A stretch of DNA of 13,383 nt. Origin: Verrucomicrobiota bacterium. Its GTDB lineage: Bacteria; Verrucomicrobiota; Verrucomicrobiia; Opitutales; Opitutaceae. The DNA lies in NCBI GenBank assembly GCA_023433275.1, contig JAEZDN010000105.1, positions 1 through 13,383 of the forward strand, in the 5' to 3' direction. Position 1 is the first letter of the stretch, and the number at the start of each line of letters is the position of its first letter. Both the position numbers and the translations under genes were made by a program. Below are positions 1 to 13,383 of the stretch, piece after piece. Under the pieces are notes generated by a model. That model worked only from the letters and a program-made list of their open reading frames with translations, did not search any database and was not told the origin of the DNA.

Positions 1-91
1 CTACCGCGCGCATGAGGGCCGCCAAAGCGCCGACCCTACGACGAAATCGCCGGCGGTGGCGCGGCCATGTGGTCGACTCGCGCCCACGCAG

Positions 92-1558
92 TCACTTCAG
101 CGCGCCGGCTCCACCGCCGCCGCCGGCCGGCGGGACCTCCTTCGCCAGGGCGATCTCTCCCTGACGGGAATAGTCGATCGCTTCCGCCAGGATGCGCGCG
201 GCTTCCTGCGGGGCGTGGAAACCCATCGAATTTTCGGCGGCGACGAAATCCAGTCGCCACTGGGCCTTGCGATGGAGGTCGCGGGCGGCCTTGAGCTGCT
301 CGTCGGTGGCGCCGGCCTTCTGCGCCGCGCCGATGGCGTGGATGAGCGCGACGGTCGCCTCCTCCGCGCGGGTGAGGAGCGCGGCATTCCGATTCTGCAT
401 GGTGAGCGCGCGCGCCATGATTTCCTTTTCCGGAATGCGGTGGCAGGTCTGGCAGGATTCGGCGACGTTCAACAGCGGGGAACGCACATGATGGTTGCTG
501 ACCTTGATGGCGCCCTCGCGCACGTAGGGCATGTGGCAGTCGGCGCAGGAAACGCCGCTGCGGGCGTGGATGCCCTGGCTCCACATCTCAAACTCGGGAT
601 GCTGCGCCTTCAGCATCTTCGCGCCACTCTCGGTGTGGGTCCAGTCGACGTGGCCGGTCTCGTTATAGTAGGCCTCCATCTGCTCGACCTTGAGGCCGTT
701 GTCCCACGGGTAGTTCACGAGCTTGTTCTTGCCCTCGAAGTTGTATTCGACGTGGCACTGCGCGCAGACCAGGGATCGCATCTCCTGGCGGGTGGCGAGC
801 AGGTTGGGCTCGTAGCTACCCTGGCGGCCGTCACGACGCCAGCGCTCGATGCTCGGGAGATGCGGCGTGGCCTCCTTGGACTCGGCCAGGGCCCTGATGC
901 CGTTGATGAATGCCGGGCGGCTCACGCGCAGGTTCATCGTCTCGGCGTCGTGGCAGTCTATGCATGACACCGGATGTGTCACCTTCTGGCGGGCCTCGGC
1001 AAACGGCAGCGGACTGATCACTTCAAAACCCTTTTGGATCTGCGCCTCGCGATGCTCACGCCCGCCGGGGATGCCGGCCGCAATGCCCGCCTCGATATAG
1101 GTGGGCAGCACCGAGGAATGGCAGTGCAGGCAGGCACCCGGCTGGTTGAAGCGGGTGACGCGTTCGGTCTCATCCTGGTCAGTGAGCATGTAGGCGTGGC
1201 CGCGCTCCTCGCGGTAATCGACGCCGAAGGGATAGCCCGCAAAGAGTGTACGGTAGAGGGGAAACTCATCGAGCCGCTGGAAGGCCTCGCTGCCGCCGTG
1301 GTTCGTGCGCTCGGTGTCCACGGTGCGCTTGTAGCTGTCGTATTGCCGCGGGTAGTTCTTTCCCCACAAGGCGGGATCCGTGGTGTTCTCGTCCACGTCC
1401 ACGACCCGGAAGACGTGCTGGGTCGCCTCGGCCTTTCGCGCCACGATGTTCTGATAGAGCATCAGGATCAGGAACGTGGCGCCGGCGGTGCCGGCGAGGA
1501 TCGCAATGAACGCCCAGGTGGCGAGGCCGTGCTGGCGGGAGGCGGAGGAGGTTTTCAT
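92..1558 (-). CDS. nrfA: Pentahaem cytochrome c nitrite reductase NrfA (ammonia-forming), CXXCH active-site variant
   Basis: 488 aa with an N-terminal signal/anchor helix. Five haem c motifs: CLHCH, CIDCH, CAQCH, CADCH, CQTCH. Long collinear resemblance to E. coli NrfA as I recall it (ERGHAY, CAQCHVEYNFEGKNK, KAQHPEFE, CADCHMP), so the catalytic Arg/Tyr/His and the Ca-site residues appear retained. Lies directly downstream of nrfH. Confidence 0.93.
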   Translation of the reverse strand: MKTSSASRQHGLATWAFIAILAGTAGATFLILMLYQNIVARKAEATQHVFRVVDVDENTTDPALWGKNYPRQYDSYKRTVDTERTNHGGSEAFQRLDEFPLYRTLFAGYPFGVDYREERGHAYMLTDQDETERVTRFNQPGACLHCHSSVLPTYIEAGIAAGIPGGREHREAQIQKGFEVISPLPFAEARQKVTHPVSCIDCHDAETMNLRVSRPAFINGIRALAESKEATPHLPSIERWRRDGRQGSYEPNLLATRQEMRSLVCAQCHVEYNFEGKNKLVNYPWDNGLKVEQMEAYYNETGHVDWTHTESGAKMLKAQHPEFEMWSQGIHARSGVSCADCHMPYVREGAIKVSNHHVRSPLLNVAESCQTCHRIPEKEIMARALTMQNRNAALLTRAEEATVALIHAIGAAQKAGATDEQLKAARDLHRKAQWRLDFVAAENSMGFHAPQEAARILAEAIDYSRQGEIALAKEVPPAGGGGGAGALK

Positions 1559-1645
1559 GACGGGAAAGACTGGTTGGTTTTCTTAGCTAAGAATGCACAC
1601 GAAGTGAGAGAAGGGGGCATCGACCCCTCGCTGCCGTTATCCCGG

Positions 1646-1708
1646 GCCGTGCGAAGGATCCAAGGGGAAGCCGCCACCCACGGCACCAGCTTGGATCCTT
1701 CGCACGGC
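1646..1708 (-). repeat. Perfect 19-bp inverted repeat (intercistronic RNA hairpin) in the nrfH-nrfA spacer
   Basis: 1646-1664 gccgtgcgaaggatccaag is the exact reverse complement of 1690-1708 cttggatccttcgcacggc, with a 25-nt loop. No U-run follows on either strand, so it is not a canonical intrinsic terminator. Confidence 0.8.
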
Positions 1709-1772
1709 TCAGGATGACGATGCAGGGGTCTGGTTTTCATTCGCGTCATTTTGTGTCCGTTCGCGGTTGAAT

Positions 1773-2249
1773 TCACTTCAGCGGACCGTGACCGACCTCG
1801 CGGTGGCAGTGCAGGCAGTCGAGCATCTTCTGCGGGTCGCCGGGGTGCGTGTTGATGCCGTCCACCAGGGCTTGGTGGCAGGTGACGCAGTTCTCCTGGA
1901 GCACCGCGATGTTCTTCTTTCGGATCATGATCGGCTCGTGGAAATCCTGCAGCGTGAAACCCTTCGAGTGCCAGAAGCCGTTCTCGGCCTTGCTGAGATA
2001 TTTCGGGATGAAGCTATGCGGCGTGTGGCAGTCGTTGCAGGTGGCGACCGCATGGTGCGGCCCCTTCTGCCAGCCATCGAACTGCTCGCGCATGATATGA
2101 CAATTCACGCACGCGGTCGGGTCGTTGGAGAAATACGACAGCCCGTGCGCGTAGGTGAAGGTGTAGCTGCCAAGACCCGCGAACAGCCCGGCCGTGGCCG
2201 TGATGGCCACCAACAGGAGCGTGCGCGTGCGCGAGGTGGGGATCTTCAT
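1773..2249 (-). CDS. nrfH: Tetrahaem cytochrome c quinol dehydrogenase NrfH (NapC/NirT family)
   Basis: 158 aa with one N-terminal TM helix. Four CXXCH motifs (CVNCH, CNDCH, CVTCH, CLHCH). Size and position immediately upstream of nrfA are typical of nrfHA operons. Confidence 0.9.
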
Positions 2250-2333
2250 GGGTCGCAGTTGGCGCTCAACCTACGCATGCCCTGCCCTCCGCCAAGCCAA
2301 CACTCGAAGTTTTTGTGCGGAACCTTCCGCCGG

Positions 2334-2567
2334 TTATTCGCGCCAAAAATTCACCGCCCAAGCCCCGTCGTTACGACGCTCCATCGACGACGCGAACCCC
2401 TCGCTCTTGAGCAATTCAATGAGTGGCGCCGGCAGGAACGGCGCCACGATCGTCACCCCCTCTCCGTCTTCGAGCGCATCCACCCGCGCGCGAATGGCCG
2501 AAAAAGGCTCCTCGCCGCGCGCGAGCACGGCCCGGATGTCGAAGGATTTGAAGCGAATCGGTTTCAT
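2334..2567 (-). CDS. DUF2249-type small protein (TusA/SirA-like fold family often found next to NO/nitrite genes)
   Basis: 77 aa. The pattern FDIR..(G)EEPF..I...V..L..GE.V.IV.PF.P.PL...L...GF......R.DG.W.V.FWR matches my recollection of DUF2249. Not HMM-verified. Confidence 0.6.
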   Translation of the reverse strand: MKPIRFKSFDIRAVLARGEEPFSAIRARVDALEDGEGVTIVAPFLPAPLIELLKSEGFASSMERRNDGAWAVNFWRE

Positions 2568-2612
2568 GCGATTGGATTGGGCTCACCCTACTCCCGTCGG
2601 CGAACAAGCGCC

Positions 2613-2626
2613 TTGATCCAAGTCAT
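2613..2626 (-). promoter_or_regulatory. FNR/CRP-family (Dnr/NnrR-type) box TTGATccaaGTCAT with a downstream -10-like TAGGGT
   Basis: 9/10 match to TTGAT-N4-GTCAA, with the shared 5' flank cgcc. The box centre at 2619.5 is 29.5 nt from a TAGGGT hexamer (2590-2585 on the minus strand). Predicted TSS is about 2578, 11 nt upstream of the DUF2249 ATG. Probably drives DUF2249-nrfH-nrfA. Confidence 0.6.
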
Positions 2627-2641
2627 ATTTTCGCCGCGGAC

Positions 2642-4765
2642 TCACGGGCTCCAGACAAATCCCGCCTCGGGATCAAACGTTAGCACATGTTGGCGACGTT
2701 CCACCGCCGTCCAGGTTCCGGCCCACCGCCGGGAGGGAACGCCGGTGGCAGGCGGTTGCGACCATATCTCCACGCTCGCGCTCTGCGCGCCCGCCGCGAG
2801 GCGCACCCGCAGCTCGCCCACCGCCACCCCGTCGTCGGACAATCCCTTGGCCCGCACCGTGTGCGTCTCCACCCGCCCACCCGCCTCCACGCGCACCACC
2901 ACCGGTTGCCGACCCCGCGCCGCGGGCATCGCCCCGCGCATGTGCACCGGGCGCGTATCGTTGCCCGCGGCCGGCGCGACCGCCGTCGGCTCGAGCCGGT
3001 CGCCATAGGCGCGAAACGTAACAACAAACTCCGGCGCCTCCGGGGCGGGATTGCGAAAAGGTGCGTCGCTCAAACCCACCATGAGCGCCACCCCCACGCC
3101 CGCCACCGCCAGCGCCACCGACCAACCGAGAACGCGGTCACGGCCTGCGCGACTGGCCCGCCCGGGCGCGCCCGCGCCGGCGCGAAGCGAGGATGCCGCT
3201 GCCGCCAGCAAGTGGGGTCGCAACGGATCGAAATCCACATGCGCCACTCGCCGCGGGTCCGCTCGATTGGGGCGGAGCGCGGGCTCACGCGTGCCAGCCA
3301 GGCGCGCGGGCATCCAAATGTTGCCCTCCCGGCCAAAGGCTTCGCTCGAACCGCAACCGACAATGAGCACAGCGGCCGCGCCCTTCGTCATCAACCGCTC
3401 GATGAGCTTCGGCTCGACCCACCCCGCGCAGGGGACGGGCCGCACCGTGTAGCCGGGCAGGCGCCGGGCCCAGGCCACGTGGTCGAACAGCTCCCAGCCC
3501 CCGTCCCCTTGGGCACACACAAAGGCAATCGCGGGAGCCTCCCCGCGGGCCCGGGCGGTGAGAACCAATTCCTCGAGCTCCCGGCCGACGCGCCGCGCAT
3601 CGAACCAGGCCAGGCCAATTCCCTGCGTGTCGCAGGAGCCCGCACAAATGCCACAACCCACGCACCGGTCGGGATCAACCTGCGCTTGCGAGGGAAACGG
3701 CTTCCCGTCGGTTCGCGGCACCATCGTGATCGCGCCGAAGGGACAGTCGTGCGAGCAAAGCGTGCAGGCAAAGCACCTCGACACGTCCACCGCCGCCTGG
3801 AACGTCGCCCGCGGCCGCCGGCGCGCGAGCCACCACGGGATGGTGACCAAAACAATCATGCTCAGGCCGGCTGAGAGCCAGATCCCGGGTCCGCTCAGCC
3901 GCGCCGTGAGTTGCAACGGCCACAGAAACCACCAGTCCATCGAGAGCGCCGCCGGTTTCACGGCGAGTTGGGCGGGAGCCGCATTCGTGGCCGGCCAGAT
4001 GAGCGCCGCGACGATCACCGCGCCGGCCAGCCCGGCGATCAGACGCTTGTCGGGGAGCAGGTTCACCCGGCTCAGGCGCGCCAGATGCAGGGCCAGGCCG
4101 CCGGCGATGGCCAATGGCAGCGCCATGTGCAGGAAGAACACCACGAAAAACAGCAGCGAAGGCACGGTCTCATCCCGATTGAAGAGCGGCAGCATGGGCT
4201 CGCCGAACACGGGCAGCACGTCCACCGCCTTCATCGTGCCCGTGGCGACCAACTGGGCCCGCTCATCCCACACCAGCCAGTAACCGGTCCACCCGATGAA
4301 CCCGATGAGCGCGAGCATGGCGATCCCGCTCGCCCAAGCGAGCCAGCGCGAGCCGGCGAATTTCCGGGCGAACAGCATGCGCGCGGCGTGCATCAGCACG
4401 AGCAGCATGGTGAGGTCGGAGGAATAGCGATGCACGCTCCGCACGATCCCGCCGGGTGATCGCGCCCCCAGCCCTGCGAGCGACGACCACGCGGATTGCA
4501 CGCTGGCGGAATACCAGATGAGCATCAGGACGCCTGAGACCGTGGCCAGGAGCAGCATGGCGTTGGCGGCCGGCCCGAGCTGCGCCAGCGGGTTCACTGG
4601 CCGCGGCCACACGCGCTCGATCACCGTGTCGAGCCGCGCCCAGCCCGCCTCGCCCGCCGCCCACAGCCGCGCCGCCCGCACGGGCGGTGCCGGCGGCTCC
4701 GCCCCAGGCGCCGGACCTCCGCCGATGCTGTCAGCCAGCGCCTCGCAATCGGGCTCCGGATGCAT
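2642..4765 (-). CDS. Multidomain membrane redox protein: dihaem cytochrome b (bc1/b6 N-terminal type) + 2x[4Fe-4S] ferredoxin + MvhD/FlpD-like domain + TM helix + about 140-aa periplasmic domain of unknown function
   Basis: I call the start at ATG 4765 (MHPEPD...), giving 707 aa. The track ORF extends to 5278 only by running out of frame across the upstream SCO gene. Two H-x13-H pairs sit in TM helices (RSVHRYSSDLTMLLVLMHAARM and FFLHMALPLAIAGGLALHLARL), plus a WTGYWLVWDERA motif, as in cytochrome b. Ferredoxin motifs: CFACTLCSHDCP and CVGCGICAGSC. MvhD-like stretch: AFVCAQ...VPCAGWVEPKLIERLMTKGAAAVLIVGCGS...REGN. About 7 TM helices by eye. Confidence 0.75.
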   Translation of the reverse strand: MHPEPDCEALADSIGGGPAPGAEPPAPPVRAARLWAAGEAGWARLDTVIERVWPRPVNPLAQLGPAANAMLLLATVSGVLMLIWYSASVQSAWSSLAGLGARSPGGIVRSVHRYSSDLTMLLVLMHAARMLFARKFAGSRWLAWASGIAMLALIGFIGWTGYWLVWDERAQLVATGTMKAVDVLPVFGEPMLPLFNRDETVPSLLFFVVFFLHMALPLAIAGGLALHLARLSRVNLLPDKRLIAGLAGAVIVAALIWPATNAAPAQLAVKPAALSMDWWFLWPLQLTARLSGPGIWLSAGLSMIVLVTIPWWLARRRPRATFQAAVDVSRCFACTLCSHDCPFGAITMVPRTDGKPFPSQAQVDPDRCVGCGICAGSCDTQGIGLAWFDARRVGRELEELVLTARARGEAPAIAFVCAQGDGGWELFDHVAWARRLPGYTVRPVPCAGWVEPKLIERLMTKGAAAVLIVGCGSSEAFGREGNIWMPARLAGTREPALRPNRADPRRVAHVDFDPLRPHLLAAAASSLRAGAGAPGRASRAGRDRVLGWSVALAVAGVGVALMVGLSDAPFRNPAPEAPEFVVTFRAYGDRLEPTAVAPAAGNDTRPVHMRGAMPAARGRQPVVVRVEAGGRVETHTVRAKGLSDDGVAVGELRVRLAAGAQSASVEIWSQPPATGVPSRRWAGTWTAVERRQHVLTFDPEAGFVWSP

Positions 4766-4883
4766 GTGACCACTCACGCCCCGCCTCCCGCCCTTCCCGG
4801 ACCGGAGGGTTCTCGCGAGGCCGTTCCGCAAGCGGGGCTTCGCCGGGGCGCGGCCCGGCGGTCGACAGCATGCCGCGCGGGAT

Positions 4884-5843
4884 TCATTCGCGCAGGAGGT
4901 GCAGCAGGCCCTCGCGCAGCCAGGCCCGGTGGCGCGGGTCGAGCGTGAAGCGGAAGGCGATGTCGCCCTCGCGATCCAGCAGGAGGAACAGGTTGGCGTG
5001 GTTGAGCACGCCGGTCTCAGGATCACGCGTGACGGAAAACTGGAGACGCTTGAGCAGATCGCGCATCTCGTCGGGGCGCTCACCGTTGACGTAGCGAAAC
5101 TCGGGAAACTCCAGTCCCTGCGCCGTAGCCATGGCGTCCATGATTTCGGTGGTCTCGTATTCCGGGTTGAGCGAGAGCGCGACCACGCGCAGACCCGCGC
5201 GGTCGGCGGCGGGCAATTCGGCGAGCACGGCACGCAACTCCTTGAAGATCTCCGGACAGGCAGTGGAACAGGCCGCATACACGCCCGTCACGAGCACAAC
5301 CTGACCGCGCAGATCGGCGAGCCGGAAGGCCGTGCCCTTCTGGTCCACGAGCGGCTGGTCAGGCACGGCAAGTCGCACCCGGATGCGATCGCCGGGAAAC
5401 GGCGGCAGGACGTCCGCCGCGCGGTCGGCTTGCGCATACGCCACCAGCCCGGCCACCGCGGCCGCAACCGTCGCCACGCCAGCGGCGGCGGCACCGAGGT
5501 GGCGGAGCCATAGCGCCGGCGACCTGAGCTGCCTGAGCGTATCGCGCCAGAGCACGCCGGCCACGAGCACGACCATGACGGGCTCGAGCAACATGATGCT
5601 GACGGCGGCCCACGACATGCCGCCGGTGCGCGGGTCGCCCTGGTAACACCATTGTTGGAAATCCCGCACGAAGCCGCCCAGCGCGCCGTCACCCGTCGGC
5701 CCGAAGATCGTGAGCAGGAGAAACGCCTCGTAGGCCGCGAGCGCCGAACCGAGGAACACCAACAGACCCGGTCCGGTGAAGAAGCGCGTGCCGGCGGACG
5801 TGGCGGCCGGCGGGGCGTCGGGGGCGTGGGCGGGAATGAGCAT
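4884..5843 (-). CDS. SCO1/SenC-family thiol-disulfide/copper chaperone with an N-terminal three-TM membrane domain
   Basis: 319 aa. Thioredoxin-fold core carries CSTAC (CxxxC) and the downstream conserved His (VLNHANLFLLLDREGDI). Three hydrophobic helices fall within the first ~140 aa. ATG at 5843. Confidence 0.75.
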   Translation of the reverse strand: MLIPAHAPDAPPAATSAGTRFFTGPGLLVFLGSALAAYEAFLLLTIFGPTGDGALGGFVRDFQQWCYQGDPRTGGMSWAAVSIMLLEPVMVVLVAGVLWRDTLRQLRSPALWLRHLGAAAAGVATVAAAVAGLVAYAQADRAADVLPPFPGDRIRVRLAVPDQPLVDQKGTAFRLADLRGQVVLVTGVYAACSTACPEIFKELRAVLAELPAADRAGLRVVALSLNPEYETTEIMDAMATAQGLEFPEFRYVNGERPDEMRDLLKRLQFSVTRDPETGVLNHANLFLLLDREGDIAFRFTLDPRHRAWLREGLLHLLRE

Positions 5844-5910
5844 GAGGATATTGTGATCTCAGGAATTGATCATCGCGGATCCAAACCAGCCCACCCCGCC
5901 CGGCCGGGCA

Positions 5911-5969
5911 CCCCTCTTGATGGAGGGGACTTCGGCTAAATTGCCCGGATTCCCCTCCATGAAGAGGGA
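5911..5969 (-). repeat. Imperfect 59-bp palindrome (nested hairpins) in the 190-bp gap between HCO subunit I and the membrane SCO gene
   Basis: Arm 5911-5929 cccctcttgatggagggga versus arm 5951-5969 tcccctccatgaagaggga: 17/19 complementary. Core tggagggga/tcccctcca is perfect over 9 bp. Each arm is also self-complementary (cccctc...gagggg). No U-tract follows. Confidence 0.65.
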
Positions 5970-6033
5970 TGGCGCGCAGCGCCGGGGGGTGTGGGGAAAT
6001 CGCACGATGTGGTGGGATTGTTGAATTCCGCCA

Positions 6034-7758
6034 TCACCGCACGGGCCACACGTCGGCCAGCGCCTTCCAGTTGGCGAAGTAGTACACCGCGAAGCACGCG
6101 AGGAACACGAAGGTGAGCACGATCGTGCCCTTGGTGGCCGAGTGGTTGTCCGCCAGCGAACCCGCCTTCGTGCCGGCGAGCGCGGGCGGCATGCCCCAGT
6201 CGGCCATCGGGCGGCCATGGTTCTTCTCGCCGAAGAGGAGCGTGCCGACGCAGAGCAGCACGAAGGCGAGCAGGCCGAGGAAGGCCAGCACGCCGCCAAT
6301 GCCCAGCGCACCCAGCCAGAGATGGGCGGCCGGGCCGTAAACGCCCTGCGCATCGATGTCCCAACTGCGGCGCGAAACCCCCATCGAGCCCGCAAAGGAC
6401 ATGCCGAATGACAGCAGCACGATGCCGCCGCCGAAGATCCAGGGCTGGAGGCGTGCGAGCCCGCGCCAGATGAAGTCGCGCTGGAAGATCAGCGGGATGA
6501 CGTAGTAAGCCAGCGCCATGAAGGCCAGCGTGGTGCCGCCGACCACGGTGACGTGGAAGTGTCCCGGGATGCGCAGCGTGTTGTGCGCGATGATGTTGAT
6601 CTGCTGCGTGCCGAGCGTGACGCCCGTGATGCCGCCGAGGAAACCAAAGATGATCACCGAGAGGACGGTGCCCGAGAGAGCCGGGTTGCGCCACGGAAGG
6701 GCCACCACCCAACCGAAGAGACCGCGCGTGTAGCCCTTCTCGCGCATGGCGATCTCGACGCCGGCCGGCACGGTGAAACCGTGGACCATGGACGCGAGCA
6801 CCGCGAGATACATGGCGTAGGAGGTGTTCCAGATCTTCCAGGCCGAGCCGACGGCCGGGTCCACGAGCAGGTGGTGGGCCGACGCGATGTTGATGAAGAG
6901 AATGTAGAGCGCGAAGGCCGTGCGGCAGACCGCCTCGTTGACCGGGCGCGCGCCCAGGATGACGTTCGACAGCAGGTACCAGACCGCGACCATGGCGCAG
7001 ACATTGACCTGTTGCGACTGGTGACCGAGGCCCCACCAGATGATGCGATACCAGATCGGATCGGGCTGGCCGATCCAGCCCATCGAGTAGGCAAACGTCG
7101 GGATCATCACGATCGCGCCGTGCAGGAGGGTGACGACCGCGATGATGGCGGCGGCCAGCGCGCCGAAGGTGACGATCGGCATCGAGCCCTCGTAGGCACG
7201 GTCGCGCTTGGCCACGTAAAGGGTGGCGAAGAAGTTGAAGACGCCCACCAGCGTGCCCACGGCGACGAGGATGATGCCGAGGTAGAAGGCCGGGTGCGCC
7301 AGCAGCGGCAGGTAGGACGTCATCAGCACGTCGGCCTGGCCGGCGATGATGACCCAGTCCACCATCACGGCGCCGACCGCCATGAGGCCGAAGCCCACCC
7401 AGGCCACCTTGCGCGAGAACAGCCGCGCGTTGAGCGGCGTGGTGCAGGCGAAGTAGAGGATCGCGACCTCGAAGAAGAGGATCCAGAAGATGAGCATGTT
7501 GATGCCGTGAAAGGTCAGCACGCGGTAGAACCAGTCCACGGGCAGGAGGTGGACGGTTTGCCAGCGCGTGAGCGCGAGCAGCAGCGCGGCGATGCCGCCG
7601 AGCAGGAGGAAGACGATGCCGACGACGGCGTGCAGCTTGATGAAGCGCTGGGCGTCGAGGCAGACGCCGAGGCCGGTGGTGGCGCAGACGCGCTTCGGCG
7701 TGTCGGGGGCGGCCAGCGAGTGCGGACCGGCGGGCAGGGTGGCGGGGGCAGAGGTCAT
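6034..7758 (-). CDS. Heme-copper oxidase superfamily subunit I, B-family-like architecture, lacking the cross-link tyrosine (candidate nitric oxide reductase catalytic subunit)
   Basis: 574 aa, about 13 TM helices. All six canonical His are present: H84 (TFHG), H246 (WWGLGH), H295/H296 (SAHHLL), H400/H402 (PGHFH). The spacings 84-246-295-400 closely parallel the T. thermophilus ba3 numbering as I recall it (72-233-282-384). The position of the His-linked Tyr (GHPxVY) reads GHQSQQ, i.e. Gln250. Confidence 0.85.
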   Translation of the reverse strand: MTSAPATLPAGPHSLAAPDTPKRVCATTGLGVCLDAQRFIKLHAVVGIVFLLLGGIAALLLALTRWQTVHLLPVDWFYRVLTFHGINMLIFWILFFEVAILYFACTTPLNARLFSRKVAWVGFGLMAVGAVMVDWVIIAGQADVLMTSYLPLLAHPAFYLGIILVAVGTLVGVFNFFATLYVAKRDRAYEGSMPIVTFGALAAAIIAVVTLLHGAIVMIPTFAYSMGWIGQPDPIWYRIIWWGLGHQSQQVNVCAMVAVWYLLSNVILGARPVNEAVCRTAFALYILFINIASAHHLLVDPAVGSAWKIWNTSYAMYLAVLASMVHGFTVPAGVEIAMREKGYTRGLFGWVVALPWRNPALSGTVLSVIIFGFLGGITGVTLGTQQINIIAHNTLRIPGHFHVTVVGGTTLAFMALAYYVIPLIFQRDFIWRGLARLQPWIFGGGIVLLSFGMSFAGSMGVSRRSWDIDAQGVYGPAAHLWLGALGIGGVLAFLGLLAFVLLCVGTLLFGEKNHGRPMADWGMPPALAGTKAGSLADNHSATKGTIVLTFVFLACFAVYYFANWKALADVWPVR

Positions 7759-7781
7759 GGGGAGGCGGAGGGATCGCGGGG

Positions 7782-8333
7782 TTATTCGACGAAGATCTTG
7801 CCGGTCATGGCGTGGTGCCCGATGCCGCAGAATTCATTGCAGACGATGGTGAACTCGCCCTTCGAGGTGGGCGTGAGCGTGAGCACGTGGTCGTACCCGG
7901 GTACGGCCTGGAAGTTCATGTTGAGGGGCTGCAGGGAAAAACCGTGCTGCAGGTCGAGGGCGGAGAGATGGATGCGGTAGGTCTCGCCCAAGCGCAGACG
8001 CAGGGCCGGATACCACTGCCACATCCGTCCGATCAGGTAGGCGTCGCCGCCGGGGGGTGGCTCCACGATCGGCAGCTCCGCGGCGAAGGCGTTTCCCGTG
8101 GGATTGACGAACGTGCCGACGCGGTTGGACTCGACGAACTTCTCGGTGCGCGCGAGGAAGTCCGCGGGTGTGACCGCGTAGGCCTCGCCGGAGCTGTTCT
8201 GTTTACCGCGAAAATGCCAGTACGGCATCATCAGCGACATCACGAAGCACCAGAGGATGGCGACGCCGAGCCAGAGCTTTTCATGGCCGGCCGGCGCGTG
8301 GAACCAGGGAGAGGTGAGAGGGCGAAGGCTCAT
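7782..8333 (-). CDS. HCO subunit II with an intact CuA centre (single-TM, ba3-like)
   Basis: 183 aa, one N-terminal TM helix, cupredoxin domain. Complete CuA ligand set: H130 (DLQHGF) and C165-N-E-F-C169-G-I-G-H173-H-A-M176 (CxExCGxxHxxM). Ends 23 nt upstream of subunit I. Confidence 0.88.
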   Translation of the reverse strand: MSLRPLTSPWFHAPAGHEKLWLGVAILWCFVMSLMMPYWHFRGKQNSSGEAYAVTPADFLARTEKFVESNRVGTFVNPTGNAFAAELPIVEPPPGGDAYLIGRMWQWYPALRLRLGETYRIHLSALDLQHGFSLQPLNMNFQAVPGYDHVLTLTPTSKGEFTIVCNEFCGIGHHAMTGKIFVE

Positions 8334-8342
8334 GGCGGCGGT

Positions 8343-8492
8343 TCAGGGCAGTTGCGCCGGCTTGATGAACAGGAGTTCGATCCAGCCCCACGCGGTGTAG
8401 GACAGGAACGGAATGACGACGCCGAGGGCGAGGAGCAGCCAGGGGTTGTCCAGGAGCTTCTGCCAGGGGTGGATCTTGGGTTCGTTTTTCAT
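8343..8492 (-). CDS. 49-aa single-TM protein, positional analogue of ba3 oxidase subunit IIa (not in the supplied ORF track)
   Basis: My translation: MKNEPKIHPWQKLLDNPWLLLALGVVIPFLSYTAWGWIELLFIKPAQLP. Its ATG overlaps the TGA of the upstream gene (ATGA, 8489-8492). Its stop lies 9 nt before the subunit II ATG. One clear hydrophobic helix. The order small-II-I mirrors cbaD-cbaB-cbaA. Confidence 0.6.
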   Translation of the reverse strand: MKNEPKIHPWQKLLDNPWLLLALGVVIPFLSYTAWGWIELLFIKPAQLP

Positions 8493-9904
8493 GGTGCAGG
8501 GTAAGAGGAAGGAGCGCGCCACGTCGCGAGGCCGCGGAGCATGATCGCGAGGAAGAGCAGGCCGCCGATCACGGCCACGAGCCCCCCGAGGCCCATCACG
8601 CCGAGGCCCACGTATTCGCCGAGCGAGCGGACGTGCTGTTCGGCGCCGTATTGCTTGCGGGCCAGGCCGAACGCGCCGGCCAGCGCAAAGCCCAGTCCGA
8701 ACACCGCCTGCCCGCCGCCGAAGAGCGCGAGTTGCCAGCGGATGAGGCGATCGGACGCACCGGCGGCGCGGGGCGAGGCTTCCCGGCTGAAATCATAGGC
8801 CGCCGCCATGAGCGCGAGCGTCACCGCGCCGATCGCACAGTGGTAGTGGCCGGGGACCAGCGTGCTCGATCCGCGGATAAACGCGCCGAGCACGAACCCG
8901 AGCACCGTCAGGAGGGCACTCCCGGCGAAACCGACGAGACGCCAGCGCCCCTCCGCCGCGCGCTCCGCCCAGTGCAGCGCCACGTGCCTGATCCCGAGGC
9001 CGAGCACAATCAGCACCACGGGAAAGATCGTCCAACGCATGAGTTGGGTCGCGATCTCGGAATACGCCGGGCGTGATGTCCCGCCCCACGCCACGACGGG
9101 CATGATCAACTGCGGCAGCACCAGCGCGCAAAGGAGCCAGCGGATCGCGGCCGGCGAGACCACATTGCGACCTGACCAGCGTCGCAACAGCCAGAGCCAG
9201 AGCCCCAGCATGAGCGCGACGTTGCCGACCTGCATGACGTGTCCCCCGCCCCACGCCACCAGCTCGTAATAGCCGATGGCCGGCAGTCCGGGCAGCGTCG
9301 AGCGCCAGGCTGCGGTGAAGGTCGCCAACGCGATCAGGTGCGCCGCCGCCGAGGCGCGCAGGGCGACAAGTGAGTCATCGGACAACCGGGTCGAGGGGAG
9401 CGACGGCACCGCCAGCGCCCCCGCGAGATAAAGCCCGCTGCCGGCGAACCAGGCGACGAGGCCGGCGAGGAACACGGGGTGATCCACCACCGGCACATAG
9501 TTCGCGAGAATCGGCTGCGCGCCCGGCATCACCGCTCCCGCCAGCAGGCCGAGGATGCCAAATCCCGCCAGCGCGATCGAAGCGACGGTGAGGCCGCGCG
9601 GGACCCGCGAGCCCACGGCCCACGCGAGATAAGCCAGCGTGCCCGCCTGGAACCACACGACAATGGCCAGATCCACGTGCACGACGAGCGCGCGCTTGAA
9701 GAACAACGGGTCGGTGAACAACCAGCCCAGGAACGGCAGCCGCCCGACCACGAGCATCAGGGACAACAATCCCGCGAGCACGAGGCTGCCGATGCCGAAG
9801 GCAAACCAGCCTCGCGCCGCGCCGGGAAAATGACTGGAGGCCATCGCCGTCGTCGTCGGGACGAAACGCGGGCGAAGCGCGGGAGCGGCGGCCGGGGTGG
9901 GCAT
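8489..9904 (-). CDS. Divergent HCO subunit I paralogue retaining the haem ligands but lacking the helix-VII His-His CuB ligands
   Basis: 471 aa, about 12 TM helices. Block-wise similarity to the 574-aa subunit I: KRALVVHVDLAIVVW / YRVLTFHGINMLIFW; YVPVVDHPVFLAG / YLPLLAHPAFYLG; WGGGHVMQVGNV / WGLGHQSQQVNV; PGHYH..G.VTLALMAAAY / PGHFH..GGTTLAFMALAYY; FGGG...FAG.FGLARK / FGGG...FAGSMGVSRR. There is no HH dipeptide anywhere in the protein; the aligned position reads V271-A272. Confidence 0.75.
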   Translation of the reverse strand: MPTPAAAPALRPRFVPTTTAMASSHFPGAARGWFAFGIGSLVLAGLLSLMLVVGRLPFLGWLFTDPLFFKRALVVHVDLAIVVWFQAGTLAYLAWAVGSRVPRGLTVASIALAGFGILGLLAGAVMPGAQPILANYVPVVDHPVFLAGLVAWFAGSGLYLAGALAVPSLPSTRLSDDSLVALRASAAAHLIALATFTAAWRSTLPGLPAIGYYELVAWGGGHVMQVGNVALMLGLWLWLLRRWSGRNVVSPAAIRWLLCALVLPQLIMPVVAWGGTSRPAYSEIATQLMRWTIFPVVLIVLGLGIRHVALHWAERAAEGRWRLVGFAGSALLTVLGFVLGAFIRGSSTLVPGHYHCAIGAVTLALMAAAYDFSREASPRAAGASDRLIRWQLALFGGGQAVFGLGFALAGAFGLARKQYGAEQHVRSLGEYVGLGVMGLGGLVAVIGGLLFLAIMLRGLATWRAPSSYPAP

Positions 9905-9939
9905 GGCTCAGTTTTTAGCAGAACACGCAGCGCGCGGCC

Positions 9940-9953
9940 TTGACGCGCATCAA
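9940..9953 (-). promoter_or_regulatory. FNR/CRP-family (Dnr/NnrR-type) box, perfect TTGATgcgcGTCAA when read on the minus strand
   Basis: Plus strand reads TTGACgcgcATCAA, with the gcc flank conserved on the minus strand. It overlaps the azurin stop codon. The centre at 9946.5 is 29.5 nt from a TAAAAA hexamer (9917-9912, minus strand). Predicted TSS is about 9905, adjacent to the ATG at 9904. Confidence 0.65.
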
Positions 9954-10468
9954 GGCTTCGGCGCGACGATCAGTTTGCCCTTCATCAACGCGGCATGGCC
10001 GGGAAATGTGCAGATGAACGGATACTCGCCGGGGGCATCCGGCGCGCTGAACTCGACGGTGTCGCTCTCATTGGGTCCGAGCAGCTTCGTGTGCGCGATG
10101 ATCCTGCCCGCGTCCGCGGGCACGTACTCCGGCGCGCGCGCCGCGGCGGCCTGCGCGAGCGCCAGCACCCCTCCATCGGGCATCGGCACCAGGAGCACCC
10201 AATTGTGTCCCATCGCCTGCTTGGGCATGCGACCAATGTTCTTCAGGGTGACTCGGATCTTCTCGCCGACGTGGGCGCGAATCTCGGTCACATTGAACTT
10301 CATGGTGTCGTCCGCCGTGATCACGACGGCCTTGACGCCGTCGACCGGGGCCGCGGCCGGGGTTGCAGCGACCGGAGCGGTGGCGGGAGCTTCGGATTTT
10401 CCGCAACCGGCGAGCAACAAGGCGGTGCCGGCCACGAGCGGAAGGATGAGGGTGGGCATGGATTTCAT
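9950..10468 (-). CDS. azu: Azurin-type blue copper protein, lipoprotein-anchored
   Basis: Near-collinear with P. aeruginosa azurin as I recall it: MKFN, MGHNWVL, RIIAHTKLLGP..S.TVEF, FICTFPGHAALMKGKL. Type-1 Cu ligands His/Cys/His/Met are all present. Lipobox LLAGC after a signal peptide, followed by an Ala/Pro-rich linker. I prefer the ATG at 10468 (MKSMPTL) over the GTG at 10477. Confidence 0.9.
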   Translation of the reverse strand: MKSMPTLILPLVAGTALLLAGCGKSEAPATAPVAATPAAAPVDGVKAVVITADDTMKFNVTEIRAHVGEKIRVTLKNIGRMPKQAMGHNWVLLVPMPDGGVLALAQAAAARAPEYVPADAGRIIAHTKLLGPNESDTVEFSAPDAPGEYPFICTFPGHAALMKGKLIVAPKP

Positions 10469-10503
10469 CCTCCCCACCCTAGCGAAAGGAACCCTTCGAC
10501 GCC

Positions 10504-10517
10504 TTGATGCGGGTCAA
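10504..10517 (-). promoter_or_regulatory. FNR/CRP-family (Dnr/NnrR-type) box TTGATgcggGTCAA with a -10-like TAGGGT
   Basis: Perfect 10/10 match, with flanks gcc...gc shared with the box at 11601. It overlaps the stop codon of the upstream gene. The centre at 10510.5 is 29.5 nt from TAGGGT (10481-10476, minus strand). Predicted TSS is about 10469, adjacent to the azurin ATG at 10468. Confidence 0.65.
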
Positions 10518-10945
10518 GCTGCCGGCGTTTCCTTGCAGCAGGCCGACTGGCAGACTCCGTCGAGCAGCCGGATCTCGCGGTGGGCGACGCCGCGCATCCG
10601 CTCGCACAATTCCCCGACCTGCGCGACGCGATCCGCCGCGCTCAGCGCGGGATCGGCGACCTGGGCCCAGATGAGCGCCTCGAGCAGCGCTTGCTCCAGC
10701 GTGGCAAAGTACGGGCGCAGCGGGTTGCAATGACACCGCTTCGGCAACGAATCGGGGTTCGCGGCAACCGTCCCATCCGGGGGTTGCGCTGCCAGCACGT
10801 CGTCGAGCGTGTGATCGAACAGGTGGACCAGGATGTCGGGACTCGCCAGCGGCGTGGCCGGTTTCTCCAGGCGTAGCAGGGCCTCCCACCGCGCGCGGAT
10901 CTCTGGCCGCCGCGGTTCGAGGAGTGGGCGCAGGGAACTGCTCAT
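10514..10945 (-). CDS. Hypothetical cytoplasmic protein with CHC and CxxxCC motifs
   Basis: 143 aa, no signal peptide or TM helix. Cysteines sit in KRCHCNP and GVCQSACC. Helical, Arg/Leu-rich N-terminus (RPEIRARWEALLRLE). 27 nt downstream of the preceding gene. I do not confidently recognise a family. Confidence 0.5.
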   Translation of the reverse strand: MSSSLRPLLEPRRPEIRARWEALLRLEKPATPLASPDILVHLFDHTLDDVLAAQPPDGTVAANPDSLPKRCHCNPLRPYFATLEQALLEALIWAQVADPALSAADRVAQVGELCERMRGVAHREIRLLDGVCQSACCKETPAA

Positions 10946-10972
10946 GGCATGAGGGAAGCGCGGGTGCGGCGC

Positions 10973-11566
10973 TCAGTGTTGGTGGCCGAATTCATGGGTG
11001 GCAGGACGAAGCGCCGACGCATGCAGGGCTTCGTAATAGTGGATGTATTCGACGTAGGCGGCGACATAGCCCCGCCCGGCCTCGACGTTGTGGTCAGCGT
11101 GGGCCCGGGCCTCGCGCGCCCGGTCAAACCGCTGGGTCAAACCGGCGGCGATGCGTTGCTGCAGCTCCCGCACCAGTTCGTCCGCGCGACCGGTTTCCAG
11201 GGATTGGTCGGCCGCAGCGATGGCCGGATCGATCGCGCCGGCCGGCTTGAGTCCGGTGAAGGCCACCCCCTCGCCAGCGCGGTGGATGCGCACGAGCGTC
11301 TCGAAGAAGTAACGCTCGGCCAGTTCGGCCGCGGTCGGCGACAGACCTCGCACCTCGAGGGTCTGCGCGAAAGCGGTGCGGATCGCGGTCTCGTCCTCCG
11401 CACGCACCCACCTGAGCACGCGCGCGACGTCACCCTCCGCGATCGCCTGCCGGGCGGCTTCTATGACCGGGCCGTCGAGGCTGTCGCAGTGGGCACGCGC
11501 AAGGGGAACGAGGGCCAGCGTCGCCAGAAAGAGGCCAGCCAGCAGGGATCGGGTCGTCTGGTTCAT
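10973..11566 (-). CDS. Secreted protein with mature N-terminus HCDSLDGPV and a His-rich C-terminus (DUF6448-like, recalled from memory)
   Basis: Start called at ATG 11566 (MNQTTRSLLAGLFLATLALVPLARA|HCDSLDGPVI), giving 197 aa. Conserved-looking core YFFETLVRIHRAGEGV.FTGLKP. C-terminus HASALRPATHEFGHQH. The track start at 11614 is a TTG lying inside the regulatory box. Confidence 0.6.
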   Translation of the reverse strand: MNQTTRSLLAGLFLATLALVPLARAHCDSLDGPVIEAARQAIAEGDVARVLRWVRAEDETAIRTAFAQTLEVRGLSPTAAELAERYFFETLVRIHRAGEGVAFTGLKPAGAIDPAIAAADQSLETGRADELVRELQQRIAAGLTQRFDRAREARAHADHNVEAGRGYVAAYVEYIHYYEALHASALRPATHEFGHQH

Positions 11567-11600
11567 GGCGCCACGATGACACGTCGGGGCGCATTCCGCC

Positions 11601-11614
11601 TTGATGCAGGTCAA
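11601..11614 (-). promoter_or_regulatory. FNR/CRP-family (Dnr/NnrR-type) box TTGATgcagGTCAA
   Basis: Perfect 10/10 match. The 19-mer gccTTGATgcaGGTCAAgc differs at a single position from the one at 10501-10519. The centre at 11607.5 is 29.5 nt from a weak hexamer CATCGT (11578-11573, minus strand) and exactly 41.5 nt from the A of ATG 11566. Confidence 0.65.
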
Positions 11615-11662
11615 GCGTTGGCCGCGCGGGTGGCGCGCGCCGGCGGGCGGAGTGGCGGCGGA

Positions 11663-12448
11663 TTACCGCCCGCTGGTCACGACGGCTTGCGCCGCCTCGT
11701 CGAGGCCGCCGCGCAGGCCGTTGCGCTGGTGGACGATCTCGCCCTCGGGGTTGAGAATGGTGATGAGGTTGGAGTGCGCGAACATGCCGTCGGCCTCCTG
11801 CTTGAACTTCACGCCCAGGAGCGCGGCGAGTTCGCGCACGGCATCGTCATCACCGTGCAACAGGGTCCATTGGTCATCGAGCTGGCGTTCCGCCCGGAAT
11901 TTCGCGAGCGCGGCCGGCGTGTCGCGCGCGACGTCGAACGTCACCAGCACGAGCGCGGCGCGCGTGCGGATCTCCGCGGGCAGTTTCGCCTGGATGGCAT
12001 GCATGTCGGTCAGCAACAGCGGGCACGCGTAGCCGCAGGAGGCGAAGAACATCGTCAGCACCACCGGCCGGCCGCGCAGGGAGCTGAGAGCGAAGGGCCG
12101 GCCGCGGTCATCGGTGAAACCGACGTCGAGTTGATAGAGCGATTCGGCGCTGAAATCCCCGCTCTTCAATGCGGGATTCTCGAGCTCGGCGCAGCAGGCG
12201 TCCGGCTTTTTGTCGGCGGTTTCCTCGACCGCGCAGCAGGCGGCGGGCTTGGGCGCGTCCCCCTGGGCGCAGCAAGCGGCCGTCCCGGACTTGTCCGCGC
12301 AGCACGCTGCCTGGTCCGTTTTACCGTCGGAGCAGCCGCAGGCCGACTGCGGCTTGGCGTCCGGCGTCGCGCAGCAGGCGGCTGGCTTTTCATGCGCCAT
12401 CAGGCCGGCGGACAGGAGGAGGGAAAGCAGGGCGAGACTCGTTTTCAT
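11663..12448 (-). CDS. SCO1/SenC-family copper chaperone with a secreted N-terminal (A)CCA-repeat cysteine-rich tail
   Basis: 261 aa with a signal peptide (MKTSLALLSLLLSAGLMA|HEK). 12 Cys in about 65 residues: five ACCA units plus one CGC. SCO core carries FFASCGYACP (CxxxC) and the conserved His (MFAHSNLITILNPEGEI). Its ATG overlaps the stop of the upstream FGE-like gene (ATGA). Confidence 0.85.
   Translation of the reverse strand: MKTSLALLSLLLSAGLMAHEKPAACCATPDAKPQSACGCSDGKTDQAACCADKSGTAACCAQGDAPKPAACCAVEETADKKPDACCAELENPALKSGDFSAESLYQLDVGFTDDRGRPFALSSLRGRPVVLTMFFASCGYACPLLLTDMHAIQAKLPAEIRTRAALVLVTFDVARDTPAALAKFRAERQLDDQWTLLHGDDDAVRELAALLGVKFKQEADGMFAHSNLITILNPEGEIVHQRNGLRGGLDEAAQAVVTSGR
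12185..12391 (-). repeat. Degenerate in-frame tandem repeat encoding the (A)CCA cysteine pairs
   Basis: The plus strand shows gcgcagca(g/a/c)g... recurring at about 12188, 12231, 12266, 12298 and 12369, with a related gagcagccgcagg at about 12330. Spacing is roughly 33-43 nt. Confidence 0.7.
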
Positions 12449-13323
12449 GGAATCGATTGGGCGCAGCGGAAGCCGAGCGAGGTGGTGGTGTTGTTGGCCT
12501 TGAGGGAGGAGCGCAGCGCCGAGCGCATGTAGGCGGCATAGTCGCTCGTCTCCTTGCTGCCCGCGGCGCCGGCGCCGCAGAACAGGTCGCGCTCGAGGCC
12601 GCTGTCGGCGCGGGATTCGCCGGTGACCATGGCGGTGTTGAAGTCATCGACCCATTCCCACACGAGGCCGTGCAGGCCGCGCGCGCCGTGGAGGTTGGTC
12701 CGGGCCGTGGCGACCGAGGGCAGCACGTCTGGCACCGGCCGCGCGAGCCAGGCGTAAAGATCGCGGTTGAACTCCGGTTCGTCCTTCCCCGCCGGCGTCG
12801 TGTAACCGGCCGCGGCGGCGAGTTCCCATTCGGCGGTGCTCGGCAGGCGCTTGCCGGCCCAGCGCGCGTAGGCGCGCGCCGCAAACCACGACACGCGCAC
12901 GACCGGGGCGTCGGGTGGGGCGCCGGCGCCGGGCTCGAGGTCGTCGGACCAGTGCTCGAGGTAGGAGGCGTCGGCAAAGAGCCGGCTGACGGCGGAGCGG
13001 CGCCATTTCGGGTTTTCGCGCACGAAGGCGAGGAACTCGGCGTTCGTCACCGGGAGGACATCCAGTTCGAAGGCCGGCACGGGCACTTGCTCGGGATCGC
13101 GCAGGGACCGTTGCACCGGTTCATAAATGCCCGCCGGAATCACGACCGACCCGCGAAGGGATGAATCGTCGATTCCGGCGCCGGGATGCTGGATATCCGC
13201 TCCGCCGCCCAAGGCGCCGAGCAGGAACAGCCCCAGCCCGACCCATGCGCGATTGAAACCGGAGGGGCGCCCGGCGGGCGGGCGACAGGGGGCCGGGATG
13301 GTGCGTGGCGCGGTGGCAAACAT
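12445..13323 (-). CDS. Formylglycine-generating-enzyme (FGE/SUMF1) domain protein, NirV-like, with an N-terminal signal-anchor
   Basis: FGE-sulfatase family hallmarks: VTNAEFLAFV, VSWFAARAYARWAGKRLPSTAEWELAA, GLVWEWVDD, and C-terminal TSLGFRCAQ. Hydrophobic segment AWVGLGLFLLGALGG. I prefer the ATG at 13323 (MFATAP, 292 aa) over the TTG at 13371. The upstream promoter is probably outside the window. Confidence 0.8.
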   Translation of the reverse strand: MFATAPRTIPAPCRPPAGRPSGFNRAWVGLGLFLLGALGGGADIQHPGAGIDDSSLRGSVVIPAGIYEPVQRSLRDPEQVPVPAFELDVLPVTNAEFLAFVRENPKWRRSAVSRLFADASYLEHWSDDLEPGAGAPPDAPVVRVSWFAARAYARWAGKRLPSTAEWELAAAAGYTTPAGKDEPEFNRDLYAWLARPVPDVLPSVATARTNLHGARGLHGLVWEWVDDFNTAMVTGESRADSGLERDLFCGAGAAGSKETSDYAAYMRSALRSSLKANNTTTSLGFRCAQSIP

Positions 13324-13383
13324 GGAAGGAAGGAAGGGCGGGCGCACCCACACCGTGGGCCCCCCGAACAAAAAATTGGTGTT

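Follow-up and report, generated by a model that had tools for sequence, protein, structure and literature searches.

We describe an undescribed variant of the haem–copper oxidoreductase (HCO) superfamily, a branch of subunit I homologues that lacks metal B and retains haem. HCOs are defined by haem together with a three-histidine metal centre, formed with copper (CuB) or iron (FeB). The gene that led us to this branch, here called X, encodes 471 amino acids on a 13,383-nt stretch of DNA from a Verrucomicrobiota bacterium of the Opitutaceae (assembly GCA_023433275.1, contig JAEZDN010000105.1, positions 1 to 13,383); this whole stretch is referred to below as the window. The branch is large, strongly conserved and widespread, and its members have dropped two of the three metal-B histidines while keeping both haem sites.

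Protein X keeps the haem ligands of subunit I and lacks the metal-B site

We compared X with its neighbours, with domain models and with solved structures. It is 27% identical to the 574-aa subunit I of an eNOR-type nitric oxide reductase (NOR) encoded in the same gene cluster (BLASTP, 432 columns, E = 1e-17), and an hhalign comparison of the X family with 70 neighbouring eNOR subunit I (eNOR-I) sequences gave a probability of 100% (E = 6e-74, 424 columns). The initial annotation of the window had proposed homology to the 574-aa protein and suggested a profile–profile comparison, and both approaches bear this out. It had also suggested a search with the Pfam COX1 model, which matched X over its length (residues 33–427, E = 1.3e-6) but scored 28 bits, under the gathering score of 34.8. 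No NCBIfam model matched X. A single-sequence phmmer search of X against the PDB returned no match, and a profile of 120 family members matched full-length Thermus ba3 subunit I (E ~1e-19 to 1e-20). Known HCO assembly-factor families (Surf1, CtaG/Cox11, Sco, CtaA, CtaB) do not include X, for which Pfam gave COX1 only.

An AlphaFold2 model of X, built with the family alignment as input, has 12 transmembrane helices, a predicted local distance difference test score (pLDDT) of 93.4 and a predicted TM-score of 0.92. Foldseek searches with this model matched HCO subunit I chains only (ba3, cbb3, aa3, bo3, cNOR and qNOR, TM-score ~0.5–0.7), with PDB 7DEG as the top match. By fold, sequence homology and haem ligands, X is a subunit I of the HCO superfamily. 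It shares with eNOR-I a Gln three residues after the first metal-B histidine (H+3) and a Y.P...HP.F motif, both of them derived motifs that are absent from ba3. X is a 12-helix inner-membrane protein that descended from an eNOR-type subunit I.

Ligand conservation was counted in 126 members drawn from 50%-identity clusters, which are 27–66% identical to X. The histidines of X are at positions 25, 76, 142, 189, 222, 307, 311, 353, 355 and 424, and only H76, H222, H353 and H355 are invariant (126/126 members). R416 is likewise invariant, and K417, Q225 and E214 are conserved in 98%, 96% and 90% of the members, respectively. BLASTP, profile and hhalign alignments concur on the ligand assignments, with H76 and H355 as the low-spin haem pair. 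These four histidines are the same ones that had initially been put forward as the retained equivalents of the haem ligands and the first metal-B ligand. Judging from the conserved ligands, X very probably binds two haems, a bis-His low-spin haem (H76/H355) and a haem ligated by H353, and R416 and K417 would hold haem propionates. At the outer end of helix VI, E214 (9263–9265; H−8) is a charge reversal specific to the X family, as the equivalent residue is Arg in both eNOR-I (R238) and ba3 (R225).

The metal-B site presents a different picture. There is no HH dipeptide anywhere in X, and the His-His pair of helix VII aligns with residues that are not ligands: ba3 H282/H283 with V270–V271 in the profile alignment, and eNOR-I H295/H296 with M268–P269 in the profile–profile alignment. 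The helix VII register is thus uncertain by two residues, and the Val-Ala that the initial annotation had assigned to these positions is not secure. Its broader claim, that the pair is missing and a canonical binuclear centre impossible, holds in both registers, as neither alignment puts a ligand opposite His-His. Among the 126 members, helix VII contains no conserved metal ligand or histidine. H307 and H311, which had been named as possible substitute ligands, are His in only 11/126 and 15/126 members and were rejected because they are not conserved in the family. Since helix VII has proline or aliphatic residues opposite His-His and H222 alone is left, X cannot form a CuB/FeB site. Ten of the 126 members have a single His in helix VII (motif LPHL) at position 265, which is Gln265 in X; in this subclade one additional potential ligand may have been kept or regained.

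Further positions around the active site of HCOs were also compared. The H+4 position, which holds the cross-linked Tyr of oxygen reductases or the Gln of eNORs, is V226 in X and variable in the family. No conserved Tyr was found in helix VI or VII, so the family lacks the cross-linked Tyr of the A, B and C oxygen reductase families. Residues 287, 290 and 293 of X, opposite the ba3 K-channel residues S309, T312 and T315, vary in the family consensus, although the register of helix VIII differs between alignment methods. X has one of the three CuB/FeB histidines, and where the eNOR subunit I signature calls for three metal-B histidines and Gln at H+4 it offers a single histidine and V226. Classifying it as an oxidase or a NOR would therefore be a mistake.

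The X family is large and under purifying selection

To determine how widespread X is, we queried 1.84 billion cluster representatives with phmmer and identified 1155 clusters (50% identity) at E ≤ 1e-3, of which 282 reached E ≤ 1e-30. Almost all of these clusters are 440–500 aa long. The branch spans Verrucomicrobiota, Myxococcota, Acidobacteriota, Balneolales, Methylomirabilota and marine metagenomes, and a single peptide pattern retrieved relatives of X in 254 species-level genomes. In a comparison with Oleiharenicola lentus, the ratio of non-synonymous to synonymous substitution rates (dN/dS) was 0.145 for X, 0.063 for subunit I, 0.064 for subunit II, 0.17 for NirK and 0.20 for NrfA. Median identities to the window's proteins, taken over the same loci, were 48% for X, 76% for subunit I and 69% for subunit II. 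X is thus clearly under purifying selection that is weaker than that on the catalytic subunits, and its rate of evolution is about double that of subunits I and II.

These data bear on whether X is a decaying, functionless duplicate of subunit I, a possibility already raised in the initial annotation. The loss of two of three metal-B ligands and a Pfam score below the gathering threshold are in keeping with decay. Against it stand 1155 clusters, relatives in 254 genomes, a pLDDT of 93.4 and a promoter box that has been kept (see below). The conservation data, with the four histidines and R416 invariant across the 126 clusters and a dN/dS of 0.145, led us to reject the pseudogene reading, which we consider as good as impossible.

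X heads a conserved eNOR module in the clade of the window

The features of X and of the genes transcribed after it are listed in Table 1. The 574-aa neighbour has six canonical histidines and Gln250 at the position of the cross-linked Tyr, all conserved in 68 orthologues. Gln at this position is diagnostic of eNOR (PMC8756737, PMC11214002). Its best PDB relatives are 7DEG and ba3 (E ~1e-43 to 1e-46), making it B-family-like. By its sequence signature it is an eNOR-type nitric oxide reductase subunit I, which substantiates the earlier description of this neighbour as NOR-like.

Table 1. Coordinates of X, its ligand codons, its putative promoter elements and the genes of the eNOR module in the window.
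Feature	Position	Strand	Basis and remarks
Gene X, 471-aa HCO subunit I paralogue, haem ligands kept, CuB/FeB His-His pair absent	8489–9904	−	Open reading frame (ORF), homology, model, conservation
H76 codon, helix II, first low-spin haem axial ligand	9677–9679	−	Invariant 126/126; aligns with ba3 H72, eNOR-I H84
H222 codon, helix VI, sole metal-B histidine kept; Q225 three residues on	9239–9241	−	Invariant; aligns with ba3 H233, eNOR-I H246
Helix VII, residues 251–273, no His-His; consensus LLLPxLAAPLLAL, P264 and P269 conserved	9086–9154	−	Model, alignments
H353-Y354-H355 codons, helix X, high-spin haem ligand and second low-spin ligand	8840–8848	−	Both His invariant; align with PGHFH of ba3/eNOR-I
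R416-K417 codons, loop XI–XII, match to haem-propionate-binding Arg-Arg pair	8654–8659	−	Align with ba3 PRRAY, eNOR-I SRRS
FNR/Dnr-type box TTGATGCGCGTCAA, perfect palindrome, 36 nt upstream of X start, overlaps cupredoxin stop codon	9940–9953	−	Motif scan
TAAAAA, −10-like hexamer	9912–9917	−	Inferred from spacing only
49-aa single-helix peptide (s), IIa-like by position and topology; ATG overlaps X stop (ATGA)	8343–8492	−	In 78/80 loci
eNOR subunit II, cupredoxin with CuA motif CNEFCGIGHHAM	7782–8333	−	Domain and motif match
eNOR-type subunit I, 574 aa; H84, H246, Q249, Q250, H295, H296, H400, H402, R463/R464	6034–7758	−	Motif, homology
Sco1/SenC-type copper chaperone, 319 aa, conserved in module	4884–5843	−	Pfam, synteny
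CytbFeS, 707-aa fusion of N-terminal cytochrome b, two [4Fe-4S] motifs and FlpD/MvhD-like domain; last in module	2642–4765	−	Domains, synteny

In the direction of transcription, X is preceded by genes for a NirK–cytochrome c fusion, a NirV-like FGE-sulfatase protein, a Sco protein, DUF6448, a 143-aa protein and a cupredoxin, and is followed by the 49-aa peptide, subunits II and I, Sco and CytbFeS, and then by DUF2249, NrfH and NrfA. The synteny of this region was counted in the best 80 genome loci, where the encoded proteins are 39–70% identical to X. Wherever the contig permits, the genes follow the order X, s, II, I, Sco, CytbFeS, while those upstream of X vary. The peptide accompanied X in 78 of the 80 loci, subunit II in 74, subunit I in 72, Sco in 63 and CytbFeS in 57.

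Some details of the first description of this operon needed adjustment. X leads its transcription unit but not the gene island, since a cupredoxin gene on that strand stops just 45 bp before it. The small IIa-like ORF that had been noted beside X is present, but its correct form is the 49-aa ORF with an ATG start rather than a 59-aa ORF with GTG; the reported ATGA coupling between the two genes is real. The peptide had no meaningful sequence match to solved structures in the PDB.

Several further observations concern the genes around the module. Its Sco1/SenC protein has an N-terminal extension of ~150 residues ahead of the thioredoxin-like domain (Pfam match at residues 165–294), and positions 11663–12448 encode another Sco, which is shorter (261 aa). 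An 878-aa version of the CytbFeS ORF runs into the Sco gene and is probably an over-long call. Directly downstream of the module are genes for the NrfH/NrfA ammonifying nitrite reductase (92–2567, − strand), with DUF2249 ahead of them, and the genes for the NirK–cytochrome c fusion and the NirV-like protein lie upstream (L001 5022–6533). The island therefore combines NO-forming and ammonia-forming nitrite reduction. Three long ORFs on the + strand, at 9897–10733, 10949–12532 and 6553–7980 (278, 527 and 475 aa), are most likely antisense artefacts of high GC content; the first two had no family matches.

X is preceded by a conserved FNR/Dnr-type box

A scan of the window for FNR/Dnr-type boxes, on both strands and with at most one mismatch, gave eight matches at five distinct sites, compared with 0.46 expected by chance. 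The box ahead of X that was noticed initially lies at one of these sites. Of 77 orthologous loci, 68 have a box of the form TTGA[TC]N4[AG]TCAA within ~200 nt upstream of X, which places X at the head of a conserved transcription unit under FNR/Dnr control. In the window, the centre of the box is 41.5 nt from position 9905, the start site that the TAAAAA hexamer would imply. Judged from the sequence alone, a class II arrangement would match this distance, and the mRNA would be almost leaderless. A scan of positions 5700–10600 for sigma-70 promoters and terminators gave nothing useful.

Two other perfect boxes, TTGATGCGGGTCAA and TTGATGCAGGTCAA, occur at 10504–10517, ~45 nt upstream of the cupredoxin start, and at 11601–11614, ~35 nt upstream of the DUF6448 start. 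A box with one mismatch (2613–2626) precedes the DUF2249-NrfH-NrfA genes by ~46 nt. The island seems to consist of several putative Dnr/FNR-controlled units.

Regulation of this type would suit a haem-only protein acting on its own, which would bind or convert NO, O2 or nitrite at the haem ligated by histidine, with H222 and Q225 as distal residues. Such a protein could buffer, detoxify or sense NO, or supply an oxidant locally. The invariant H222, the 96% conservation of Q225 and an island that also encodes NirK, NirV-like, cupredoxin, eNOR and NrfHA proteins are consistent with this idea, and several altered active sites in the HCO superfamily are reported to still react with NO (PMC11214002). 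Nevertheless, the positions that align with the K-channel vary in the consensus, subject to the helix VIII register, leaving no conserved proton pathway evident, and X contains no output or signalling domain and is without an electron-donor subunit of its own. In addition, the contexts with aa3 oxidase genes or ctaA described below are without nitrogen-oxide genes. We consider a stand-alone function of this kind decidedly unlikely.

Distant relatives of X are linked to haem-a enzymes or haem A synthase

We next looked up the genomic contexts of individual members that are ~30% identical to X. A metagenome scan with this distant subfamily identified 551 relatives, and the same four histidines are invariant in it. 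One locus (P0214) has X first, as in the clade of the window. The P0254 locus reads s, II, I, Sco, CytbFeS, X, CtaA, and its X and ctaA genes overlap; in P0251 X runs convergently to an eNOR cluster and an additional HCO. P0258 has X divergent from ctaA and adjoining an A-type cox operon (COX2, COX1, CtaG, COX3, SURF1), without eNOR. X is also divergent from ctaA in P0262 and P0243, and in P0194 it is followed by a thioredoxin-like gene.

For a tally of contexts we used the 27 loci with at least 4 kb on each side of X. Eighteen of these are linked to eNOR (six also to ctaA), seven to an A-type (aa3) oxidase (four also to ctaA) and two to ctaA only; none of the 27 lacks eNOR, aa3 and ctaA together. 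What all these contexts have in common is haem a. The usual order in the distant eNOR-linked loci is s, II, I, Sco, CytbFeS, X, CytbFeS, (CtaA), which places X with assembly and cofactor genes. CytbFeS is often duplicated around X in these loci.

In other clades the 49-aa peptide keeps to subunit II, while X is found elsewhere. We therefore read the ATGA overlap in the window as a sign of operon compactness rather than of a specific pairing, and rejected a specific complex of X with the peptide on this ground.

A low-GC marine contig (L084 11524–15921, − strand) contains an eNOR (GHSSQQ) with, directly after it, another CuA subunit II and an HCO subunit I of 482 aa. The latter keeps the His-His pair and has the motif GHTLVN, in which Asn takes the Tyr position; an X homologue is convergent to the cluster. 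From its sequence, the second enzyme looks like a tandem sNOR/bNOR-type enzyme.

Our literature searches found no description of such a family beyond a passing mention, without analysis, in one preprint. That study of Ferrigenium straubiae lists an 'eNOR scaffold protein of unknown function', a K02274 hypothetical protein, in the proteome, its gene flanked by Sco1 and two cytochrome b/FeS proteins, and also proposes a supercomplex (bioRxiv 10.64898/2026.01.22.701106). A search with the protein of the layout-matched locus P0254 gave no named Gallionellaceae match. X is absent from the account of eNORs by Murali et al. 2024 (PMC11214002).

The contexts raise the question of whether X serves a larger eNOR supercomplex as an auxiliary redox subunit. 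Its haems would then relay electrons, for example between eNOR and CytbFeS or the quinol pool, or X would be a pseudo-dimer partner of subunit I. Its invariant place in the gene order and its co-transcription with II, I and CytbFeS across 80 genomes, the ATGA coupling to the next gene and the presence of CytbFeS on both sides of X in many distant loci point in this direction. The invariance of both haem sites, with the propionate pair R416 (invariant) and K417 (98%), the ability of HCOs to dimerise, as in PDB 7DEG, and the supercomplex likewise proposed for Ferrigenium are also consistent with a redox subunit. However, some relatives adjoin aa3 operons or ctaA with no eNOR or CytbFeS gene in the vicinity, X and the eNOR structural genes are often on opposite strands in distant loci, and X evolves at about twice the rate of I and II. 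Moreover, purified eNORs have been reported as two-subunit enzymes, the R. marinus eNOR showing two subunits on SDS-PAGE (PMC11214002). On balance we regard an auxiliary redox subunit as somewhat unlikely.

A further idea is that X partners haem A synthase in redox reactions or as a source of oxidant, enabling haem a/As to be made for eNOR when O2 is scarce. It could do so, for example, by exchanging electrons with CtaA or by making a local oxidant from NO at its haem without metal B. If true, this would address how a haem-a enzyme matures in denitrifiers despite O2-dependent cofactor synthesis. We think such a partnership very improbable.

A possible accessory role in the biogenesis of haem-a enzymes

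The role that we tentatively favour, at somewhat less than even confidence, is that of an accessory or biogenesis factor of haem-a HCOs, which would handle haem a/As or scaffold subunit I. We infer this role because all contexts involve a haem-a enzyme or ctaA and because X evolves faster than the catalytic subunits and moves among assembly genes. The initial annotation had listed a sensor, an NO-binding or detoxifying module, an assembly scaffold and a partner in a heteromeric complex without choosing among them. The scaffold or haem-handling option is now favoured because relatives also adjoin aa3 operons and ctaA.

In this model, an FNR/Dnr-type promoter would drive a unit that begins with X and continues with the IIa-like peptide, eNOR II and I, Sco and the cytochrome b/FeS protein. 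As a paralogous scaffold or holder, X would receive haem a/As from the haem A synthase pathway and present it to nascent subunit I, or it would stabilise subunit I during assembly. At the locus in the window X would serve eNOR, whose two haems would be haem As. The R. marinus eNOR reduces NO and carries haem As in both sites, and ctaA is present in many eNOR operons (Murali et al. 2024, PMC11214002). For X itself, the ctaA linkage is only suggestive of haem As.

Several points weigh against a biogenesis role. In the 80 genome loci of the window's clade, no ctaA or ctaB was found within 8 kb of X, and the ctaA link is therefore confined to the distant subfamilies. To our knowledge, no haem chaperone is a 12-helix two-haem protein. 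A gene that stands first and is translationally coupled to the structural genes fits a stoichiometric subunit equally well, and strict conservation of both haem sites, H222 and Q225 would also be expected of a redox-active or ligand-binding protein. The two-subunit purifications of eNOR are weak evidence, as R. marinus or Magnetospirillum may not encode X. Finally, the Ferrigenium protein is likened to the X family by annotation and operon layout only, and not by sequence.

Relation to known systems

That X is linked exclusively to eNOR, aa3 oxidases and haem A synthase suggests that the making or servicing of haem-a enzymes includes a step that has gone unrecognised. Genes of the X family are currently annotated as 'cytochrome c oxidase subunit I' or 'cbb3-type subunit I', a mislabelling that would inflate the counts of oxidases and NORs in metagenomic surveys.

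Of the known proteins, eNOR subunit I of the R. marinus family shares with X the 12-helix core, both sets of haem ligands and the operon. Both also have the first metal-B His in WG.GH, Gln at H+3 (Q225 in X and Q249 in eNOR-I, compared with Val236 in ba3), the Y.P...HP.F motif and the Arg-Arg/Lys propionate pair. Unlike eNOR-I, X is without the His-His pair of helix VII and without Gln at the Tyr position; it is also ~100 residues shorter (471 versus 574 aa) and evolves faster. The two differ opposite the K-channel as well, where the positions in X are not conserved, with the caveat that the helix VIII register depends on the method.

Subunit I of T. thermophilus ba3 (1EHK, 3S8F) is the best relative of X with a solved structure, both by profile and by fold, with a TM-score of ~0.6–0.7. 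Its residues H72, H233, H384, H386 and R449/R450 all have equivalents in X, whereas H282, H283 and the cross-linked Y237 do not.

X is not alone among HCO subunit I homologues in departing from the three-histidine rule, as gNOR and the putative NO dismutase do so as well. The gNOR family was described as the first HCO family with a replaced active-site histidine (PMC11214002). In gNOR, however, one His is replaced by an Asp that is still a ligand, whereas in X two histidines are replaced by non-ligands, which makes a metal-B site impossible.

Like X in many distant loci, the Ferrigenium 'eNOR scaffold protein' is encoded after Sco1 and cytochrome b/FeS genes, and by annotation and layout it is a candidate member of the X family. 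The way in which X might serve eNOR would be analogous to NifEN serving NifDK, and it likewise recalls the haem a insertion factors Surf1 and CbaX; these systems would resemble X in their proposed logic only and have no sequence relationship to it.

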